Assembly (NCBI GenBank): GCA_027315405.1
Contig: DAHUYB010000077.1
Span: 24,286 to 88,285, forward strand
Direction: 5' to 3'
Length of the DNA stretch: 64,000 bases
Source: Gammaproteobacteria bacterium
GTDB taxonomy: Bacteria > Pseudomonadota > Gammaproteobacteria > Natronospirales > REEB76
Part shown: positions 22,497-49,463 of the stretch, piece by piece
Layout of the letters: each line of letters starts with the position of its first letter
Position numbering within the stretch: the stretch's first letter is position 1
The notes under the pieces: model-generated
Database searches by the model: none
What the model saw: only the letters and a program-made list of their open reading frames with translations
Told to the model about the DNA's origin: nothing
Position numbers and translations under genes: made by a program

Positions 22497-23477
22497 CTAA
22501 CCTGCTGCACAAAGTTCAAGCCGCCCGCCACCAGTGTCCAATGTACCGACCAATTCGGCAACCGTCTGGAGGCGATGCCGCGCGAGATAATCGGCGATGC
22601 CGGCATTAAGTTTCTTGCAGACCAGCGGGTCGTAGAACAAGGCTGTTCCCAGCCCGACCGCCGCGGCACCGGCCACCAGGAATTCCAGGGCATCATTGAC
22701 AGTGGTGACCCCCCCCTGGCCGATGATGGGGACCTGATGGGGCCGCGCGACCTGATACACCTGGTGCACCTTGAGGAGGGCTATGGGTTTGATAGCCGGA
22801 CCCGAAAGCCCTCCCTGGACGTTGCCGATGACCGGTTTGCGGGTTTCCGGATCAATGGCCATACCCATGAGCGTGTTGATGACCGCCAAACCGTCGGTGC
22901 CGGCCTCGATGCAGCGCCGGGCGTTATTCGCAATGTCCGTCTGGTTGGGGGAGAGCTTGGTGATCAGCGGCTTTTTGGTAACCCCGCGACAGGCGGCCAC
23001 CACCCGCGCCGACATCTCCGGATCGTTACCGAAGGCCACGCCGCCTTGCTTCACGTTCGGGCAGGAGATGTTGATCTCCATGGCATCAATAGGCGAATCA
23101 TCGAAGCGCCGCGTGACCTCCGCGTATTCTTCGACCGTTGAACCCGAAACATTAGCGATGAAACGGGTCTCGGAAAAATCCAGTGTCGGCAGGATCTTTT
23201 TCACCACGTGATCTACCCCAGGGTTCTGCAGGCCGATGGCGTTTAACATGCCCGCCGGAGTTTCGTAAATGCGGTGGGCTGGATTGCCGAGGCGCGGTTT
23301 CAAGGTAGTGCCTTTAAGGCACACGGCGCCCGCATCGCGGTTGGAAAATCCGGCCACGCGCGTATATTCTTCGCCGAACCCCACGCAGCCCGACAATAGC
23401 ACTAGTGGCGAATTGAATTTGAGACCACAGAAGTCGGTTTTTAGCGAATCAGGAAGAGTCTGTTCTCCATCGTCCAT
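22497..23477 (-). CDS. pyrD: dihydroorotate dehydrogenase, class 1B-type catalytic subunit
   Basis: Collinear with Bacillus PyrD as I recall it: SGCVGFGEEY, AGMLNAIGLQNPG, EINISCPNVKQGG (Cys active-site loop), GGLSGPAIKP and IIGQGGV. Confidence 0.85.
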   Translation of the reverse strand: MDDGEQTLPDSLKTDFCGLKFNSPLVLLSGCVGFGEEYTRVAGFSNRDAGAVCLKGTTLKPRLGNPAHRIYETPAGMLNAIGLQNPGVDHVVKKILPTLDFSETRFIANVSGSTVEEYAEVTRRFDDSPIDAMEINISCPNVKQGGVAFGNDPEMSARVVAACRGVTKKPLITKLSPNQTDIANNARRCIEAGTDGLAVINTLMGMAIDPETRKPVIGNVQGGLSGPAIKPIALLKVHQVYQVARPHQVPIIGQGGVTTVNDALEFLVAGAAAVGLGTALFYDPLVCKKLNAGIADYLARHRLQTVAELVGTLDTGGGRLELCAAG

Positions 23478-40414: not shown

Positions 40415-41329
40415 TCAACCCTTGCCTTCGACCAGGCGCACGAATAGCTCTTCCAGACGATTCACCTTGTTGCGCATGCTGGTCACCTGGATGTGCTGCT
40501 GCGAGAGCAGGCCGAACAACCTATTGACGTCCTGGGACTTATTCACCTCGACTTCCAGGGTGGTGTCGTCCACCTGGGTCACGGCGTAGCCGTCGAGCGG
40601 CGGCATCTGTTGCAGCGGCTCGCGCAAGTTGAGCACGAAGGTTTCGGTATGCAATTTCGCCAGCAGGTCGCGGGTGCGTCCCTGTTCGATGATACGCCCC
40701 TTGTCGATGATGGCGACGCGTCGGCACAGATCCTCGGCTTCCTCCAGATAATGGGTGGTGAGGATGATGGTGATGCCTTCCTTGTTGATTTTCTTCAGGA
40801 ACGTCCACATAGAGCGGCGGACCTCGATATCCACGCCGGCGGTGGGTTCGTCCAGGATCAATAATTTTGGTTCGTGCACCAGCGCCCGCGCGATCATAAG
40901 CCGGCGCTTCATGCCGCCGGACAAGGTCCGGGAGATGTGGTCGCGCTTATCCCAGAGGCTCAACTGCTTCAGATATTTCTCCGTGCGCTGCTTCGCCAGC
41001 CGTTGCGGGATGCCGTAGAACCCCGCCTGGTTTATTACAATATCGGAAATCTTCTCGAACTGGTTGAAGTTGATCTCCTGCGGCACCAGGCCGATACAGG
41101 ATTTCGCCCTTTCTATTTCGGTGTCGATATCGTGATCGAAGACCTTGACGCTGCCAGAAGTCTTGTTCACCAATGAAGTGATGATGCCGATGGCGGTGGT
41201 TTTGCCGGCGCCGTTGGGACCGAGAAGTGCGCTGAACTCGCCTTCCTGCACCTCGAAATCAATGCCCTTGAGGGCTTGGGTGCCGTTCTTGTAGGTCTTG
41301 ACGAGGTTGTGGATGCTGAGTGCGTTCAT
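40415..41329 (-). CDS. ABC transporter ATP-binding protein (YadG-like)
   Basis: Walker A GPNGAGKTT, signature LSGGMKRR, Walker B LLILDEPT. Confidence 0.9.
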   Translation of the reverse strand: MNALSIHNLVKTYKNGTQALKGIDFEVQEGEFSALLGPNGAGKTTAIGIITSLVNKTSGSVKVFDHDIDTEIERAKSCIGLVPQEINFNQFEKISDIVINQAGFYGIPQRLAKQRTEKYLKQLSLWDKRDHISRTLSGGMKRRLMIARALVHEPKLLILDEPTAGVDIEVRRSMWTFLKKINKEGITIILTTHYLEEAEDLCRRVAIIDKGRIIEQGRTRDLLAKLHTETFVLNLREPLQQMPPLDGYAVTQVDDTTLEVEVNKSQDVNRLFGLLSQQHIQVTSMRNKVNRLEELFVRLVEGKG

Positions 41330-41646
41330 GGACGGATGAAAACATTCCGGCAGGGGTTATTTTGGGCGCTAATGATACCGCAAAAGAAAAGCTCAGCGGT
41401 TTGCACCGCGTCCAATTTAGTAGGCTGGGAGCAGCATTGGGCTGTGCGCCATCGTGCTGGCATGGGTCTATCAGTCGCAGTTGCCGCCATCATGAACGGT
41501 GATCGGGACTTTCCATCCGAACTGAAGAAATCCGGTAAGAATTCCCCTAGACTGCCTCCTTGACAGGTTGGAACAATCCATGCGCCGCATTCAAGACTGA
41601 AATCTGGGATGCGAATCAATCAATATATGGTTGCAACGGTTGATCG

Positions 41647-42129
41647 ATGAAACTACGTGATCACAAGCTGGCACGGCTGATTCTCGAGCTTCTGAGTCAG
41701 GGCATCACGCCCCACAAGATTGCGCTCACCGTCGCCTTGGGTGTGGTACTGGGTGTGGCCCCGGTGCTCGGCAGCACCACGCTACTGTGCACCGCCGCCG
41801 CCCTGGTGTTCGGCATCAACCTGCCGCTGATTCAGGTGGTGAACTACCTGGTTTACCCCCTGCAACTGCTATTGTTGATTCCCTTCATCCAGGGTGGGCA
41901 ATGGCTGTTTCGCCAGCCGCCTTTGCCGTTCTCGTTTGCGCAACTCACCGCGCTGCTGCGATTGAGATTCTGGCAGACACTGGCGATGCTCTGGGAATAC
42001 ACCCTGCACGGGTTGATTGCATGGCTGATCCTGGGCGGGATGTCTGCATTCATCATCTATACGGTGTTGCGCCCAATCCTCGGGTATCTGATCGTGAGAA
42101 AAACCGCCAGCGAGAAGCATCTTGATTAA
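41647..42129 (+). CDS. DUF2062 domain membrane protein
   Basis: 160 aa. GITPHKIALTVALGVVLGVAPVLGSTTLLCTAAALVFGINLPLIQVVNYLVYP fits DUF2062. Confidence 0.72.
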   Translation: MKLRDHKLARLILELLSQGITPHKIALTVALGVVLGVAPVLGSTTLLCTAAALVFGINLPLIQVVNYLVYPLQLLLLIPFIQGGQWLFRQPPLPFSFAQLTALLRLRFWQTLAMLWEYTLHGLIAWLILGGMSAFIIYTVLRPILGYLIVRKTASEKHLD

Positions 42130-42240
42130 TTAGCGGGTAGTAAATGTGTTTCCAGGTTGTATTCCGAAGCTGCCTGCCACACCGGCCTTGAGTTCCAGAA
42201 CGTATTTTGCCGGGGCGGCGCTGGCACAGGTGGCTACTCT
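42130..42240 (-). pseudogene. orphan 3'-terminal remnant of a DUF192 gene
   Basis: The minus-strand translation ...CASAAPAKYVLELKAGVAGSFGIQPGNTFTTR(stop) parallels the C-terminus of the intact DUF192 gene at 46740..47192 (...YSSAAPAKYVLELHPGVAEKLGIRPGVILTIEP). No N-terminal part is present. Confidence 0.65.
42190..42224. repeat. left copy of the 35-nt direct repeat flanking the microcin islet
   Basis: GAGTTCCAGAACGTATTTTGCCGGGGCGGCGCTGG. Identical at 34/35 positions to 46803..46837. Confidence 0.9.
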
Positions 42241-42261
42241 GGGATGAGCGCAGAGATATAC

Positions 42262-42292
42262 TTGACAAAATCGCGCGGGGGGGGGGTAGGGT
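42262..42292 (+). promoter_or_regulatory. sigma70-like promoter candidate with a G10 homopolymer in the spacer
   Basis: Perfect -35 TTGACA (42262..42267), a 19-nt spacer containing G10 (42277..42286), and a weak -10 TAGGGT (42287..42292). Confidence 0.3.
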
Positions 42293-42306
42293 TGTCGCCG
42301 ATGAGC

Positions 42307-42336
42307 AGGACATACATTTTTACTGCTCACCATAAT
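42307..42336 (+). promoter_or_regulatory. sigma70-like promoter candidate proximal to the microcin gene
   Basis: AGGACA (42307..42312), 18-nt spacer, CATAAT (42331..42336). Lies about 28 nt upstream of ATG 42364. Confidence 0.35.
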
Positions 42337-42363
42337 TGCAAAATTACTCGAAAGGAGACAAAC

Positions 42364-42564
42364 ATGCGAAACCTTACCGCGAACGAATTCTCATTTGTAA
42401 GTGGTGGAGCACCAGCAGGTGAGTCCGAATTGGACACTGTCGCACAAGGTCTGGCCATTGGCGCTTTGGCAAACGCACTTGTTGGAGATGAACCAGGAGC
42501 GTTAACCTTAGCCGCGGCGGCGGGCGGAATAAAAATTGGCGAGTATATTTACTCGCTCTTTTAA
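42364..42564 (+). CDS. double-glycine-leader bacteriocin (class II microcin-like) precursor, 66 aa
   Basis: SD AAGGAG lies 8 nt upstream. The product is MRNLTANEFSFVSGG / APAGESELDTVAQGLAIGALANALVGDEPGALTLAAAAGGIKIGEYIYSLF. The leader is nearly superimposable on the colicin V leader MRTLTLNELDSVSGG. It is encoded next to a C39-ABC exporter. It is nested in the 135-aa track ORF 42157..42564. Confidence 0.75.
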   Translation: MRNLTANEFSFVSGGAPAGESELDTVAQGLAIGALANALVGDEPGALTLAAAAGGIKIGEYIYSLF

Positions 42565-42581
42565 AAACGAGATGATCTTTT

Positions 42582-42615
42582 GGTCCTTGTCAATTTGACA
42601 GGGACCTTTCGTTTT
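42582..42615 (+). terminator. intrinsic terminator/attenuator after the microcin gene
   Basis: 10-bp stem (GGTCCTTGTC 42582..42591 pairs with GACAGGGACC 42597..42606, one G-U pair), 5-nt loop, then UUUCGUUUU. Confidence 0.6.
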
Positions 42616-42651
42616 CACGTGAATTTCGATCTAAAAATTTCTGTACCAGCT

Positions 42652-43188
42652 ATGGTAAAAATCCACAAAATACGGCCTCTTGCAATCACCATTTGGCTAA
42701 TTGGGGTTGTAACACTCGGTTTAGGTCTTTATGTTTGGGGTATTAAATCAAATCCACTATTTTTCATGGAGATGTTGATATTTGGCTTAATTTGTATATG
42801 GATGACATTGTACAGCTACCTATGGGGGCATCAGAGAGGTCACCCGACACGATTTATTGCCATCGTGGTGTTTTCAAGTTTTTGTGTCTGCTTTTATCTG
42901 CGCTCGATCGGCATACTTGGCGGTCACTTATATTTTGTTATCCCGCTGTTATTTGTTGTGATTCTTATCTTGGTGCAATCTAAAACGAAACGACAATTTG
43001 CAGAAGACTATAAATCAGGCATTAAGCGAAATCATTTTAATGATACTAAAGAACGATTCGAGGTAACCAAAAAGACTACAGCCAGTTATCCCCACTATTT
43101 GCAAATAATTTTGCCCAAGCGATATTTGGACAACTATGATTCATTAAAAGCTTGGCTTAGATCGATTAAGGAACATATGCAAAAATAG
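42652..43188 (+). CDS. putative immunity protein (4-TM membrane protein, no recognised family)
   Basis: 179 aa from ATG 42652. Four hydrophobic helices then a Lys-rich cytoplasmic tail. AT-rich codon usage unlike the rest of the window. Sits in the immunity-gene position between the precursor and exporter genes. There is no clear SD. Confidence 0.5.
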   Translation: MVKIHKIRPLAITIWLIGVVTLGLGLYVWGIKSNPLFFMEMLIFGLICIWMTLYSYLWGHQRGHPTRFIAIVVFSSFCVCFYLRSIGILGGHLYFVIPLLFVVILILVQSKTKRQFAEDYKSGIKRNHFNDTKERFEVTKKTTASYPHYLQIILPKRYLDNYDSLKAWLRSIKEHMQK

Positions 43189-43354
43189 ATATAAAGCAGG
43201 AATTCCTATCATGGGAGACTGTAAATTGAACTGTGTAGCTGCTTCATGAGAGCTTACCACTGGCAGTCATGAGGAGTGAAGCGGATGATCCTCAAGTCGG
43301 AGACCTTGGACGAAGTGCTGAAAGATAGGCGTGCACCGCCCTGCGGGTATTTCC

Positions 43355-44598
43355 ATGCCTTCACTGTTCAGACCTGAAGTTTTCAAGCACAAAACAACCT
43401 TACGCTTCGGCGCCGTTATGGTGCCAACCCCTCTTCCTCTATGGTTTATGAGCACCTTTACGCTGATCTTGCTCGCCTCAATTGCCGCTTACTTCTGGGG
43501 GGGCATTACACGCGCAAGGTAACGGTGGAAGGCTATCTGCTACCTACGAAGGGACTGGTGCGCTTGTATGCGCCCGAGCTAGGCATTGTGAGCGAACGCA
43601 AGGTCGCGCAGGGTGGGCGCGTCCACAAAGATGACACGCTTCTGGTCATCGCGATTCCGCGCAGCTCAACTAGTGCGGCGAACGTAAATCAGGCGCTGGC
43701 GCAGGCCGTCGAGCAGACTGAGGCGGCGATCCACGCGCAGATGACCGAGGCCGTTGAGCTTGAGCAAAGCCAGGAAGCGTCGTTCCAGGCCAACCTCGTC
43801 AATTTGCGCACGAATTTGAGTGAAGAGCGTGCCCAGCTCAACACGCAGAAGAAATTGCTGGCGATCCTTGCGACGCGACAGAAGAAGTACGCCACATTTG
43901 AAGGCTCGGGATTGATCTCGGAATTGGACATCAGGAATGCGGAACAAGCGTGGCTGGAGCAGGTCGCGAAAGTCCAAGCACTGGAGCAATCCATTACACA
44001 GGCCACGGGTCAAATTCAGAGCACTCAGTTCCAGTTGGCGCAAGCCAATATCAACCTGCAAAACCAACTTGCCCAGTATCAACAATCGTTGAGCACGGCC
44101 GAACAGCAACTCACTCAATATCAGGCTGGGGACAACTTCGTACTCAAGGCGCCGGTGGACGGTACGGTGTCCGCCATGCTAGTGCAGCCGGGGCAGACGG
44201 TGTCTCCGCAAACCCCGCTGGTCATCTTGATGCCCACGGGGTCACAACTCGAAGCGCGTTTGTTGATCCCCGCGGGCGCCATGGGTTTCGTAAAAGTTGG
44301 CCAGAAAGTCAGGCTGCGTTACGACGCGTTTCCCTACCAGAACTTTGGCACTTATCAGGGACGCGTCACGCAGGTTTCCAATGCCGTTTTCACACCATCT
44401 GAACTACCGGGGCCGCTCGCCATCAACGCAGCCGTGTATCCCGTAGAAGTGGCGCTCGATTCACAGGATGTCATGGCCTACGGGCATCCGGTGGCGCTCC
44501 AGCCGGGCCTGTCACTGAGCGCGGATGTGCTCTTGGCTCGCGAACGCATTATTCAATGGCTATTTGAGCCACTTTACAGTTTGAAGGGCAAACTCTAG
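43355..44598 (+). pseudogene. cvaA: CvaA/HlyD-family membrane fusion protein, reading frame split at a G7 tract
   Basis: The N-terminal part (43355..43522, MPSLFRPEVFKHKTTLRFG...TM helix...AAYFWGG) and the main part (track ORF 43441..44598, ...GGHYTRKVTVEGYLLP...) are in different frames. One extra G in the run 43497..43503 joins them into a ~414-aa CvaA-like protein. Confidence 0.85.
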
Positions 44599-44619
44599 AA
44601 GTTCCCGGAGGACGTAGGA

Positions 44620-46731
44620 GTGACGCTGCGGTTCTCGCGCCGGCAGTTAACGGTAATGCTGCAAACCGAAGCCGCGGAATGCGGCCTTGCCTGCTTGGCC
44701 ATGGTTTTCAGTTTTCATGGCCACCGCATGGATGTGGGTGAGCTGCGGCGCCGATACAGTTTTTCTCTCAAGGGCGCGACACTCGCGCATCTCATTACCA
44801 TTGCCAACGGCTTGGGGTTCATCACGCGCCCCTTGCGGCTGGAACTTGAGGATTTACCAAAGCTTACCTGCCCCGCGATTCTGCACTGGGACTTGAATCA
44901 TTTCGTGGTGCTGAAGGCCGCACGCGGGCGCCACGTGGTGATTCACGATCCGGCTCGCGGGAGCCGCAGCCTCAATCTTGACGAGGTTTCCAAGCATTTT
45001 ACAGGCGTGGCGCTGGAGCTTGCTCCCGGCCACGGTTTTCAAACTAAAGCCGCTCCCGAAATACCAGCCATCTGGTCACTCCTTGGCGGTTGGCGGGGTA
45101 TGCTGGGCGCTCTTACCCAGATTCTGGTGTTTTCGCTGGCGCTGGAAGCCTTCGCGATTCTCAGCCCGTTCTTTACGCAGCTTGTCGTGGACCAGGTGCT
45201 GGTGAACCGCGACATGAACCTGTTGACGGTGCTCGGCATCGGTTTTGGTCTGCTGGCCATCATCAACGTGGTGGTCACGGCTTTGCGGGGTTGGATGGTG
45301 GCCTATCTCGGCAGTCACCTGCAATTTCACTCCGCGGCCGCGCTCATGCGGCATTTGGTGGGGTTGCCGTTGGACTTCTTCGCCAAAAGGCATATCGGCG
45401 ACGTGGTCTCGCGCTTTAATTCCATGAGCACCATTCAGCAGACCATGACTTCTGGGCTCATCGAGGCGCTGGTGGACGGCGTCATGGTGATATTCACCGT
45501 TGCCGTCATGTTGTTCTATAGCGTGCCGCTCACGCTGTTGATAGTCGCATTGATCGTGGGCTACGCAATCATCCGGTTTCTCGCCTACCGTCCGCTGCAC
45601 ACTGCCACCGAAGAGCAGATCATCCAGCTCGCCAAGCAGCAGTCCAATTTCCTGGAAACCGTGCGCGGCATGCAGAGTGTGAAAGTAGCCGGTTCCGAAG
45701 GAGAACGCCACACTCAGTATCAGAACCGGCTGGCGGACAACGTGAATGCTTCATTTATCGTCAGCAAGCTCGGTATCTGGTTCAAGGCCACAAACGGACT
45801 GTTGTTCGGTCTTGGGACCATCGCGGTGATCTGGTGGGGCGCAAGCGAAGTCATGGCCGGTATGTTGTCCATCGGCATGTTGATCGCATTCATTTCCTAC
45901 GCCAGCCAGAGCACCGGCAAGGCCGGGGCACTGATAGACAAAGCCATTGCCTTCCGCATGCTGCGGCTGCATGCGGAGCGGGTGGGCGATATTGTGTTTG
46001 CCGAGCCGGAGGCAGTTTCGTCTTTACCGCGGCTGGGACAGGTGCCCATCCGCGGCAGGATCGAAGTGGAGAATTTGTGCTACCGCTACGGTGATCTGGA
46101 AGCGCCGGTTCTGAGAAACGTGAGCTTTTACATCGAGCCAGGCGAGTCGGTAGGCATCGTTGGTCCGTCGGGCTGCGGCAAAACCACGTTGGTCAAGCTC
46201 CTGCTTGGCCTCATGCGGCCTACGGAAGGGACGATTAAGGTGGATGGTCTCGATATCCAGACCCTGGGCCTTTCTGAGTACCGTCGGCACGTGGGCGCGG
46301 TGATGCAAGAGGATCAGCTCTTTGCCGGTACTTTGTCGGACAATATCGCGTTTTTCGATCCGCAGGCGGATCAGTCATGGATTGAAACCTGTGCGAAACT
46401 CGCGGCTATCCACGGCGATATTCTGACCATGCCCATGGCCTACAACACGTTGATTGGCGACATGGGCACGGTTCTCTCCGGCGGCCAGAAGCAGAGAGTA
46501 CTGCTGGCGCGGGCACTTTATCGCCGACCGCGAATATTGCTGCTGGACGAGGCTACCAGCCACCTGGATGTACCCACGGAAAAACTGGTGAGCGACGCCG
46601 TGCGGCGACTGAAAATTACCCGCATTATTGTTGCTCATCGCTCCGAGACCATACGCTTAGTTGATCGGGTGCTTGGAATAATGCCGAATAAACCAGGTGT
46701 TACCGAACTGCGCAGAGTGAAAAATGTTTGA
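44620..46731 (+). CDS. cvaB: bacteriocin/microcin ABC exporter with N-terminal C39 peptidase domain (CvaB-like)
   Basis: 703 aa. QTEAAECGLACLAMV (catalytic Cys), HWDLNHFVVL, six TM segments, Walker A GPSGCGKTT, LSGGQKQR, LLLDEATSHLD. Collinear with CvaB as I recall it. Confidence 0.93.
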   Translation: MTLRFSRRQLTVMLQTEAAECGLACLAMVFSFHGHRMDVGELRRRYSFSLKGATLAHLITIANGLGFITRPLRLELEDLPKLTCPAILHWDLNHFVVLKAARGRHVVIHDPARGSRSLNLDEVSKHFTGVALELAPGHGFQTKAAPEIPAIWSLLGGWRGMLGALTQILVFSLALEAFAILSPFFTQLVVDQVLVNRDMNLLTVLGIGFGLLAIINVVVTALRGWMVAYLGSHLQFHSAAALMRHLVGLPLDFFAKRHIGDVVSRFNSMSTIQQTMTSGLIEALVDGVMVIFTVAVMLFYSVPLTLLIVALIVGYAIIRFLAYRPLHTATEEQIIQLAKQQSNFLETVRGMQSVKVAGSEGERHTQYQNRLADNVNASFIVSKLGIWFKATNGLLFGLGTIAVIWWGASEVMAGMLSIGMLIAFISYASQSTGKAGALIDKAIAFRMLRLHAERVGDIVFAEPEAVSSLPRLGQVPIRGRIEVENLCYRYGDLEAPVLRNVSFYIEPGESVGIVGPSGCGKTTLVKLLLGLMRPTEGTIKVDGLDIQTLGLSEYRRHVGAVMQEDQLFAGTLSDNIAFFDPQADQSWIETCAKLAAIHGDILTMPMAYNTLIGDMGTVLSGGQKQRVLLARALYRRPRILLLDEATSHLDVPTEKLVSDAVRRLKITRIIVAHRSETIRLVDRVLGIMPNKPGVTELRRVKNV

Positions 46732-46739
46732 CTGCTGCG

Positions 46740-47192
46740 TCATGGTTCAATGGTCAAAATAACGCCGGGACGGATTCCAAGCTTTTCCGCTACGCCCGGA
46801 TGGAGTTCCAGCACGTATTTTGCCGGGGCGGCGCTGGAATAAGAAGGGCAGGGATTCATCTTGCAAGGTGGCGTATCCGCCGACACGTTGATGAGCCGGC
46901 GCTGTGCATCGAAGAACAGAATATCCAATGGAATGAGTGTATGCTTCATCCAGAAATAACGCAGCTGCGCGTTGGAGTAGACAAACAGCATGCCGTGGCC
47001 GGCTGCCAAGTGCGTACGGTACATCAGACCGCGTTCACGGGCGGCGTCGGTGGCCGCAATTTCCACGCTGAAACTGTGACCTGCGAGTACCACGTGGGAT
47101 CCCGTAGGGGGCGCCGCAAACACGGCCGAGGTGACAATGAACAAGGCAAACAGAAGATTTCGACTTAAAATAAGAGGACGGCGCATCAGCAT
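46740..47192 (-). CDS. DUF192 domain-containing secreted protein
   Basis: 150 aa. Signal peptide, ...GLMYRTHLAAGHGMLFVY...WMKHTLIPLDILFFD...AAPAKYVLEL pattern of DUF192/COG1430. Confidence 0.8.
   Translation of the reverse strand: MLMRRPLILSRNLLFALFIVTSAVFAAPPTGSHVVLAGHSFSVEIAATDAARERGLMYRTHLAAGHGMLFVYSNAQLRYFWMKHTLIPLDILFFDAQRRLINVSADTPPCKMNPCPSYSSAAPAKYVLELHPGVAEKLGIRPGVILTIEP
46803..46837. repeat. right copy of the 35-nt direct repeat flanking the microcin islet
   Basis: GAGTTCCAGCACGTATTTTGCCGGGGCGGCGCTGG, inside the 3' end of the intact DUF192 gene. Confidence 0.9.
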
Positions 47193-47206
47193 TTTCTCCC
47201 GATGAT

Positions 47207-48712
47207 TTAGTTGATTGGCATTCCCGGCGGCTGCTTGGTGAAGTCTTGCGGTGAAGGATTCTGGGTCAGGCGGTACACGCCCTCTCGTAGGATGCGGCGC
47301 ATGACGATATCCACGATGGTGGTCTGGTTGGGCTTGATGAAATTCCTGAGATTAACCGCCGTCGCCTTAAGGGTCGCCGGCTGATAGAGCACGAAGCCAT
47401 CCTGGGGGTAGGGCACCACGCGCAGGCCGAGGCCGTCGCAGGGCGGCAGCGCTGGCCGCAATTGCCGGCCTTTGTACATCACCGCCGGGCCGCCCAGCAT
47501 GCGGGTGTAATTGAGGTAGTAGGTGATGGTGCCGGGATCCAGGTGATTGCGCTGGCGGTCGATGAAAAATCCCGGCGGCAGGTGGTTGGGGCTATTGTCT
47601 TTGCCGGCGGTGAGAACGATATCGAAATCCTTGATGGCATTGCCTTGGTCGTCGCGCACCCGAAAAATGAGCATGCAGCAGGGATCCACGATTACCTGAT
47701 GATCGAAGGGACCAAGGCTGCCGCGGTCCTCCACTTGTTCTTGTTGTTGGACCTCCGCCGTTTGCGCGCGGAAGCTGTCGAAGAGTTCAGCGTAATCCTT
47801 GAGGGTGGTGACCCGCAGGCATTGTAGAATGCCCGTTACAGTGGCGTTGGGGGTGGCATCGGCGGGAATGCTGCGCATGATGCCCATGCGCAGGTCCGAA
47901 TGACAGACGCCGGGGATTACCGCCAACGGCACCGCCGCTGAAATTTCCGGTGCCCCGGCCTGCAGCAACGGGGCGCTGAAACCCAGCTTCGACTTTTTGT
48001 CCGCCGTTGGTGGTTGCTGTTTCAGGCGCACATAGGTGTAATTCAAGTTGGCAGCCGCCACCCGGACCACGCCATCGGAGCCGTTTTCCGCGGTGTAGCT
48101 GTTCACAAAATCGTAAAGTTGAGGATCGTGGGATTCGCCGCTGAGCACGAAGGGAAACAAGCCCTGCGAGCCGATATAGTCCGCGCCCTGTTGCAGCCAT
48201 TCGAGATTGAGTTTGAGACTCTGGGGACTGCCCAGTTCCAGCCATTCCAGTACGCCGGTACCCACGTCCACGCCCTCGAACCAGGCCTTGAGGCGCGAGA
48301 GCTTGGACAGCCCCAGTTGTACCAAAGCCGAACCGAAGTTCGCGGGCGCCAGCATGATGAGATGGCTCAGGGGCGAATGCTTGCGGCCAGCGTTGATATA
48401 GAAATGCTGCAGCCAGGCACGGATCACCGGGCAGCCGGTGGAATGGGCGATGCAGGCGATACGTTGCCCATTTTTGATGGCCTCGCCCAGCTCCCGTTCC
48501 AAGGCCGTCTGGAAGGCGCGGGCAATATCCGGAATGGTGACTTCGTTGTGGAAACTGATGTATTCCGACAGCCAGAGATTGCGTACCTCGATGTCCAAAT
48601 CGGGCGAACGCTTGGCTTCCAGTTTGAGGCGCTGCGGCAGACCGCCGTAAGTATCGGTATTGCGCACGCTCCAGCCGTGTACCAGCACCACCAGGCGCTT
48701 TTGCTTAGCCAT
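47207..48712 (-). CDS. alpha/beta-hydrolase lipase, PlaB-like phospholipase A candidate
   Basis: 501 aa. VVLVHGWSV, the uncommon nucleophile motif AHSTG (PlaB has THSTG), LIMLAPANFGSAL, GSDGVVRVAAANLNY. A ~250-aa C-terminal domain of unknown fold follows. Confidence 0.6.
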   Translation of the reverse strand: MAKQKRLVVLVHGWSVRNTDTYGGLPQRLKLEAKRSPDLDIEVRNLWLSEYISFHNEVTIPDIARAFQTALERELGEAIKNGQRIACIAHSTGCPVIRAWLQHFYINAGRKHSPLSHLIMLAPANFGSALVQLGLSKLSRLKAWFEGVDVGTGVLEWLELGSPQSLKLNLEWLQQGADYIGSQGLFPFVLSGESHDPQLYDFVNSYTAENGSDGVVRVAAANLNYTYVRLKQQPPTADKKSKLGFSAPLLQAGAPEISAAVPLAVIPGVCHSDLRMGIMRSIPADATPNATVTGILQCLRVTTLKDYAELFDSFRAQTAEVQQQEQVEDRGSLGPFDHQVIVDPCCMLIFRVRDDQGNAIKDFDIVLTAGKDNSPNHLPPGFFIDRQRNHLDPGTITYYLNYTRMLGGPAVMYKGRQLRPALPPCDGLGLRVVPYPQDGFVLYQPATLKATAVNLRNFIKPNQTTIVDIVMRRILREGVYRLTQNPSPQDFTKQPPGMPIN

Positions 48713-48857
48713 TCAAGCTCCTTGTATTATTGCGGTCCTGCCATTGAAAACGGCTGCTGTCATCCATAATCCATATTAGTCCAGACGCCGGCAGCGTGCC
48801 CTGCGGGTGTATCATGAAGCATCGTTAATGTGTAGATATCTTCAGAGGATTAGCGCT

Positions 48858-49463
48858 ATGTCCGAATTGCATACCATGAAGAAAGTCGTGGGGTTCGCCG
48901 CCGTGCTGGGCATGGTGCTGACACTGGCCGGCTGCGGTATCAACAACATTCCCACCTACAAGCAGCGGGTAACCGCCGCCTGGAGCCAGGTGTTGAACGA
49001 ATACCAGCGGCGTACCGACCTGATCCCCAACCTGGTGGCCACGGTTAAAGGCTATGCCACTCACGAGGCGGATGTACTGGAGGCCGTAACCAATGCCCGC
49101 GCCAAGGTCACCCAGACCCAGATACCCAACGATATCCTTACCAACCCTAAGGCGTTCCACCAGTTCGAACAGAACCAGGCGACCCTGGGCGGTGCGCTCT
49201 CGCGCCTTATGATGGTGACGGAGAATTATCCGAACCTGAAAGCCAATCAGAATTTCCTGGCGCTGCAATCGCAGCTGGAAGGCACCGAGAACCGTATCGC
49301 CGTGGCGCGCCGCGACTACATCCTGGCAGTGCAGCAGTACGATACGGAACTCACCACCATCCCGGGACGTTGGTATCACGCCATGTTCTACTCGAGTTAC
49401 CCGATGATCCAGAATTTCACGATCTCGGAACAGGCGCAGCAGGCGCCCAAGGTCAGTTTCTAA
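48858..49463 (+). CDS. lemA: LemA family lipoprotein
   Basis: Lipobox LTLAGCG. The pattern WSQVLNEYQRRTDLIPNLVATVKGYATHE...NYPNLKANQNFLALQSQLEGTENRIAVARRDY is the LemA signature. Confidence 0.88.
   Translation: MSELHTMKKVVGFAAVLGMVLTLAGCGINNIPTYKQRVTAAWSQVLNEYQRRTDLIPNLVATVKGYATHEADVLEAVTNARAKVTQTQIPNDILTNPKAFHQFEQNQATLGGALSRLMMVTENYPNLKANQNFLALQSQLEGTENRIAVARRDYILAVQQYDTELTTIPGRWYHAMFYSSYPMIQNFTISEQAQQAPKVSF

Follow-up and report, generated by a model that had tools for sequence, protein, structure and literature searches.

The CvaA-type fusion protein (MFP) gene of a microcin-type cluster in an uncultured gammaproteobacterium is out of frame at a run of seven G, and on balance we consider it probable that a recent deletion inactivated the gene, giving a strain that would be defective in export and possibly still immune. 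The MFP gene is the third of a four-gene cluster that also encodes a precursor, a 202-aa membrane protein and a C39-ABC exporter. In the window, by which we mean the whole 64-kb stretch of DNA that was analysed, these genes and the break are arranged as follows.

42364..42564, plus strand: precursor of 66 aa that begins with the double-glycine leader MRNLTANEFSFVSGG and is rich in Gly and Ala in its core
42580..43188, plus strand: 202-aa multi-pass membrane protein without a family match, in the position of an immunity gene and of low G+C (40-44%)
43355..43522, plus strand: 5' segment of the MFP gene in frame A, 55 codons plus TAA, encoding the cytoplasmic N-terminus and a single TM helix
43497..43503, plus strand: G7 run, the counterpart of GG-T-GGGGG (TGG TGG GGG) in intact relatives
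43504..44598, plus strand: 3' segment of the MFP gene in frame B (-1 relative to frame A), encoding the periplasmic coiled-coil, lipoyl and beta-barrel domains (Pfam HlyD_3 and HlyD_D23)
44620..46731, plus strand: 703-aa peptidase-C39 ABC exporter (CvaB / PCAT type), intact, with three Pfam domains matched over essentially their full profile lengths

An earlier note on this DNA had placed a frameshift in a CvaA-like gene at this homopolymer, and both reading frames are indeed found in the window. The run comprises exactly seven G and is the third-longest G/C run in the window, one of only three of at least seven (C8 at 22709, G10 at 42277 and G7 at 43497). From the ATG at 43355, frame A reads MPSLF...AAYFWGGITRAR and ends at the TAA of 43520-43522, with the product MPSLFRPEVFKHKTTLRFGAVMVPTPLPLWFMSTFTLILLASIAAYFWGGITRAR; frame B, shifted by -1, carries ...GGHYTRKVTVEGYLLP... 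and runs to 44598. Inserting one base in the G7 run yields an uninterrupted ORF of 414 codons, which agrees with the protein length that the note had given for eight G and with the length of intact relatives. Since this repaired ORF aligns with the relatives from end to end and gapless at the junction, the two frames are one gene with a single lesion and not a chance juxtaposition.

The break separates two parts that belong in one polypeptide. The sole TM helix (residues 27-45, Kyte-Doolittle 1.86) lies in frame A upstream of the lesion, and the ORF called in frame B (385 aa, 43441-44598) has a hydropathy maximum of 1.11 and contains neither a TM segment nor a signal peptide. As the sequence stands, the stop at 43520-43522 lies between the anchor and the periplasmic domains, which are joined only after the 1-nt repair. 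We considered a split MFP that functions in two pieces and rejected it, as the product of re-initiation would have no TM or signal sequence. A frame-B GTG (43525-43527), 2 nt past the frame-A stop and with AAGG upstream, makes such re-initiation conceivable; in relatives, its nucleotides are ordinary coding sequence.

The repaired protein is a periplasmic adaptor of the HlyD kind, matching Pfam HlyD_3 above cut-off (1.9e-19) and HlyD_D23 (9.6e-13). Its best relative of solved structure is HlyD of the haemolysin type I secretion system (PDB 8DCK, E 4e-13, residues 131-408), with which it has the coiled-coil, lipoyl and beta-barrel architecture in common, although its match to NCBIfam type_I_hlyD is below the cut-off (128.9 against 208.65 bits). 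In tblastn, residues 4-410 are 20.5% identical (E 2e-19) to the product of a plasmid gene that bears the annotation 'Colicin V secretion protein CvaA', and another E. coli plasmid MFP is 27% identical. Together with the domain matches this bears out the CvaA-type assignment of the earlier note, and the comparison with CvaA appears fair as one of architecture and remote homology. A search of 5.8 billion protein clusters retrieved closer, full-length relatives: seven of 413-414 aa and one 392-aa gene call, 65-81% identical and all gapless at the junction. A scan of GTDB representative genomes gave solely distant MFP relatives (at most 33% identity), and a profile-guided scan of JGI contigs added four loci, all of the types represented by L019 and L022.

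The rest of the cluster resembles the CvaA-CvaB exporter of colicin V and the class II microcins on E. coli plasmids. The gene order is the same: a GG-leader precursor, a small membrane protein, an MFP that has about 414 aa and a single TM helix at its N-terminus, and a C39-peptidase ABC exporter, whose gene starts 21 nt downstream of the MFP gene. It differs from that system in its host, in its location on a chromosomal island near oriC, in the frameshifted MFP and in the precursor, which reaches 20.1 bits against the 27-bit cut-off of Pfam MccV, has no NCBIfam hit and thus falls outside the known microcin families by these models. The C39 domain of the exporter matches at 1e-33 and is apparently intact over the full Pfam profile, for which reason the system fits a GG-leader peptide as substrate rather than an RTX protein, as in the HlyD system; cleavage after the leader is predicted. 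From its position we infer that the 202-aa protein confers immunity. By sequence, no damage is apparent in the genes for the precursor, the putative immunity protein and the C39-ABC exporter.

The stop codon of the precursor is immediately followed by a strong terminator-like hairpin (42582-42606) of 11 pairs with a T-rich tail behind it, overlapping the TTG called as the start of the 202-aa gene. The hairpin may act as an attenuator that sets a high ratio of precursor to export-gene transcripts, and the true start of the 202-aa gene may lie further downstream than the called TTG. An Rfam scan of 41500-44800 returned nothing meaningful, its one PyrG-leader hit, on this hairpin, being far below threshold.

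Comparison with relatives at the DNA level suggests which base was lost. Around the junction, the relatives read as follows, in frame in every case.

L016, L017/L018 and L020: TGG TGG GGC CAT
L019/L023, L022, L024 and L025: TGG TGG GGG CAT
L011-L015: TGG CTT GGT CAT
L021: TAT TGG GGC CAT

The window reads TGG GGG GGC AT, that is, TGGTGGGGGCAT minus a T, and in the MAFFT alignment its only gap, of 1 nt, falls on that T, in the second Trp codon. A long G run or a frameshift at the junction is absent from all distinct relatives whose DNA is in hand; where the window has G7, they have an interrupted or different sequence (TGGTGGGGN, TGGCTTGGT or TATTGGGGC), always in frame. Given that relatives differ synonymously in the last position of the Gly codon, loss of the T is the shortest history; most likely, an ancestral ...TTC TGG TGG GGG CAT... 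lost the T of its second Trp codon. The G7 homopolymer would then probably be the product of the mutation rather than its cause. The earlier note had assumed G8, coding for W-G-G-H, as the intact state. This is probably wrong: relatives encode W-W-G-H (TGG TGG GGG/C CAT), and none of the 15 aligned homologues has Gly at this Trp/Leu/Phe position. A route through G8 takes two steps, a Trp-to-Gly substitution by T-to-G change that makes the G8 and then a contraction to G7. We regard it as less likely than loss of the T, a judgement limited by a nearest relative that is just 81% identical; by either route the present allele is out of frame. A recombination breakpoint at the tract was also considered. 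The first 49 codons are no closer to the nearest relatives than to a more distant clade, but the N-terminal region of the MFP evolves fast in all pairs compared, which makes this signal unreadable, and the idea was set aside.

The break appears to be young relative to the divergences that can be measured, as the repaired gene has evolved like its intact relatives. Its dN/dS is 0.09 against L011 and 0.08 against L016, compared with 0.07 between these two intact genes. Private substitutions number 34 in the window lineage, compared with 30 and 38 in its sister lineages. At sites invariant in the other eight sequences, the window lineage has nine changes, a count that ranges from 3 to 15 in the others. 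There is no second lesion in the MFP gene.

For the origin of the break, the earlier note had listed four causes: an inactivating mutation, a slipped-strand switch, ribosomal or transcriptional slippage and an assembly error. Inactivation is favoured by the relatives, all of which are intact and free of a long G run at this place, and by a gene otherwise under normal purifying selection. The same lack of decay would be equally expected of a functional, switchable gene. Under an ON/OFF switch, G7 would be OFF and G8 ON, so that a subpopulation exports the microcin and most cells are silent but immune. The +1 variant of the coding tract is in frame, and two of the window's three G/C runs of at least seven lie within the 4.6-kb island that carries the cluster. 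The operon also holds a conserved tract of G9-G11 between a TTGACA box and a TAnnGT box, which means that homopolymer control is not foreign to the system and counts to that degree against a plain deletion. Known G/C-tract switches typically have eight or more repeats, and G7 is at the short end of tracts that switch at useful rates. Moreover, the tract is absent from every relative, interrupted there by T or other bases, and the ON form would place Gly where relatives have Trp, Leu or Phe. The only allele in public data is the OFF form: G7 is the sole length seen (in the window and in a Logan contig listed for two samples), and no intact allele turned up among about 15 billion proteins or in the JGI contigs. 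A precedent exists in a bacteriocin-like island of Neisseria, for genes of which phase variation by way of homopolymeric tracts within the ORFs has been inferred (PMC11798529). The likeness is that here, too, a G run falls within an ORF on a bacteriocin-type island; the differences are that the coding tract here is short and absent from all relatives, that identical contigs from different samples show no length polymorphism and that the present case is known from sequence alone. We find a switch at G7 doubtful, and the relatives lend it no support.

Could the frameshift be an artefact, the real genome having TGGTGGGGG or G8 and an intact gene? The DNA comes from a metagenome-assembled genome whose lineage is uncultured, the island varies between strains, and the contigs that other samples yield for strains with the island tend to break within it, a setting in which consensus errors occur; a gene with exactly one lesion and no decay would also fit. 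Against this, an independently built Logan contig of SRR13766252, listed for two samples, matches window positions 40831-49004 with 100% identity over 8174 bp, including G7 and G10, a comparison in which the assemblies may share reads. The other 15 long homopolymers in the window are accompanied by no comparable frame break. The clearest of them is the C8 run at 22709-22716, which reads as G8 on the coding strand of pyrD (dihydroorotate dehydrogenase), a gene of full length that appears intact; the run serves as a control for the handling of homopolymers. The loss of a T between two G runs is also not a typical short-read error, and we hold an assembly error to be unlikely. Programmed recoding, in which a -1 ribosomal frameshift on G_GGG_GGC or slippage of RNA polymerase would make some full-length MFP from the G7 template, is highly improbable, and we rejected it in view of the missing stimulator, the poor shift class and the absence of conservation. 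G_GGG_GGC (43498-43504, frame A) formally fits the slippery heptamer X_XXZ_ZZN, the shift required is -1 and a zero-frame stop follows six codons downstream. Nevertheless, the folding energy downstream is no different from that of shuffled sequences (z = -0.89, no structure detected), the 30 nt upstream contain no SD-like motif, and the two-frame arrangement occurs in no orthologue, all of which are single ORFs. Known cases of bacterial transcriptional slippage occur on long A/T runs. In E. coli, GGN codons in the A-site, especially the heterogeneous GGC and GGU, are poor shifters and belong to the least efficient classes: unaided by a stimulator, G_GG.G_GG.U shifts at 0.018%, and the patterns that exceed 0.1% do not include G_GG.G_GG.C (PMC4066793).

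Searches for further alleles of the broken gene were negative within their scope. Other samples contain strains that bear the island, but their contigs (L026, L028 and L029) end before reaching the G7 tract, and a DNA pattern with exact flanks and a variable gap matched nothing in the JGI metagenome contigs. Neither of the two repaired proteins, WGGH or WWGH, has an exact match among about 15 billion proteins, and an exact look-up of the 385-aa ORF gave no record. Literature searches on cvaA frameshifts and on SRR13766252 found nothing relevant. In the sister-strain contig L026 (ENA ERZ27233573 k141_864997, 1031 bp), positions 1-94 repeat window 43963-44056 in inverted orientation and are followed by 43874-44814; this junction is probably an assembly chimera inside the MFP gene.

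The second, longer G run of the operon belongs to an element found upstream of the precursor.

42262..42292, plus strand: promoter-like element TTGACA - 9 nt - G10 (42277-42286) - TAGGGT, 78 nt upstream of the precursor ATG

In the window the element reads TTGACA-AAATCGCGC-G10-TAGGGT, and four other locus types, whose cargo differs, share this arrangement.

L017, 1137-1167: G11
L019 (L019/L024 type), 949-978: G11
L022 (L022/L025 type), 1017-1046: G10
L011 (L011-L014 type), 1314-1346: interrupted run GGGGGGAGG (G6AG2)

Over the five diverged versions of the cluster the general layout is TTGACAA - 6-8 nt - poly-G - TAnnGT, with implied spacers of 18-19 nt; TTGACAA, the G run and an AAGGAGA ribosome-binding site are invariant in the alignment and the rest diverges. 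The length of the G tract does not vary within a type among identical contigs from different samples. Poly-G elements in promoter spacers give length-dependent expression in other bacteria, with porA, opc and Bordetella fim as examples of poly-G/C spacers, and the present run similarly lies between -35-like and -10-like hexamers. By this analogy the element looks like a poly-G promoter spacer and is a candidate for a length-dependent promoter of the phase-variable type. Control at two levels, with the G9-G11 spacer tuning transcription of the operon and the new G7/G8 tract additionally gating export in this strain, seems very unlikely; if true, this uncultured gammaproteobacterium from the environment would form subpopulations of producers and of immune non-producers. 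The leader between the element and the ribosome-binding site (42293-42363) contains a short hairpin whose stems, judged by eye, differ between loci and stay complementary (GAGCAG/CTGCTC in the window, AAGCAG/CTGCTT in L017, GGTGG/CCACT in L019).

The cluster as a whole is a 4613-bp island between 35-nt direct repeats with one mismatch (GAGTTCCAG[A/C]ACGTATTTTGCCGGGGCGGCGCTGG).

42190..42224, no strand assigned: left 35-nt direct repeat, inside the remnant of the original DUF192 3' end (42130-42224)
46803..46837, no strand assigned: right 35-nt direct repeat with 1 mismatch, inside the functional DUF192 gene (46740-47186, minus strand)

The island is inserted at the 3' end of DUF192 and supplies a DUF192 3' end of its own, which shares about 75% identity with the remnant at 42130-42224; genes for a recombinase, integrase or transposase are absent from the island. 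Exact-protein look-ups of the flanking DUF2062 and DUF192 genes identified sister strains with flanks 99.6-99.9% identical (L030-L033) in which DUF2062 is directly followed by DUF192, with the empty site at 8484-8578 in L030 and likewise in L031, L032 and L033. These empty sites and the bounding repeats define the cluster as an island, which is accessory and varies between strains.

In the distant genomes L017, L019 and L021, a related MFP-ABC pair occupies the same chromosomal position with a different precursor and immunity cargo. The G+C content, about 57% elsewhere, falls to 40-44% over 42500-43500, where the putative immunity gene lies along with the intergenic stretch that leads up to the MFP gene. 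This drop and the different precursor and immunity genes beside related MFP-ABC pairs suggest, at the level of sequence, that the cargo module has been swapped. The cargo seen beside such pairs in distant genomes includes Rce1-like/CPBP and rhomboid proteins. The window itself is chromosomal, near the gyrB region, and GyrB assigns the organism to a gammaproteobacterial lineage known only from MAGs (best cultured match 71% identical).

If the recent deletion is the correct reading, its consequences can be sketched. Loss of a single base would have fused GG and GGGGG into G7, and translation from the ATG at 43355 would end after 55 codons and leave the membrane anchor alone. Any product of the downstream frame, being free of a TM helix and a signal peptide, would stay out of the periplasm. 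Adaptors of the HlyD/CvaA type are established to link the ABC exporter with the outer-membrane channel, which a periplasmic domain left in the cytoplasm cannot do, so that export of the peptide would be expected to fail. With the precursor, putative immunity and ABC-peptidase genes intact, the strain would be an immune non-producer. A later +1 slip to G8, replacing Trp by Gly, could restore the frame, which would make an ordinary revertant and not a designed switch. The lesion and its position, the intact relatives, the lack of decay and the presence or absence of the island between strains are observed directly, and from these and the gene arrangement we infer that export is lost, that the 202-aa protein serves in immunity and which base is missing.

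Cases of this kind are familiar from recent loss-of-function frameshifts in accessory genes, as in the immune or resistant non-producers of bacteriocin populations. The present locus is alike in having a single lesion in one export gene and an otherwise intact cluster, and in the presence/absence polymorphism of the island among strains 99.8% identical in the flanks; it differs in that the immune non-producer phenotype is deduced here from the genes.

The frameshift itself would thus be ordinary, a recent knockout of one accessory gene, and its context is of more interest: a compact microcin-type island of 4.6 kb with defined 35-nt repeat ends, no recombinase gene and empty sites in close strains. 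For the mining of bacteriocins in MAGs the lesion has a practical side, as the cluster will be listed with a 385-aa 'HlyD' that has no membrane anchor. More generally, a frameshift that falls on a homopolymer need not stem from slippage of that homopolymer, and a run that, as here, was probably made by deletion of an interrupting T weakens claims of phase variation drawn from sequence alone. The conserved poly-G promoter-like element, in turn, may be a real expression switch.
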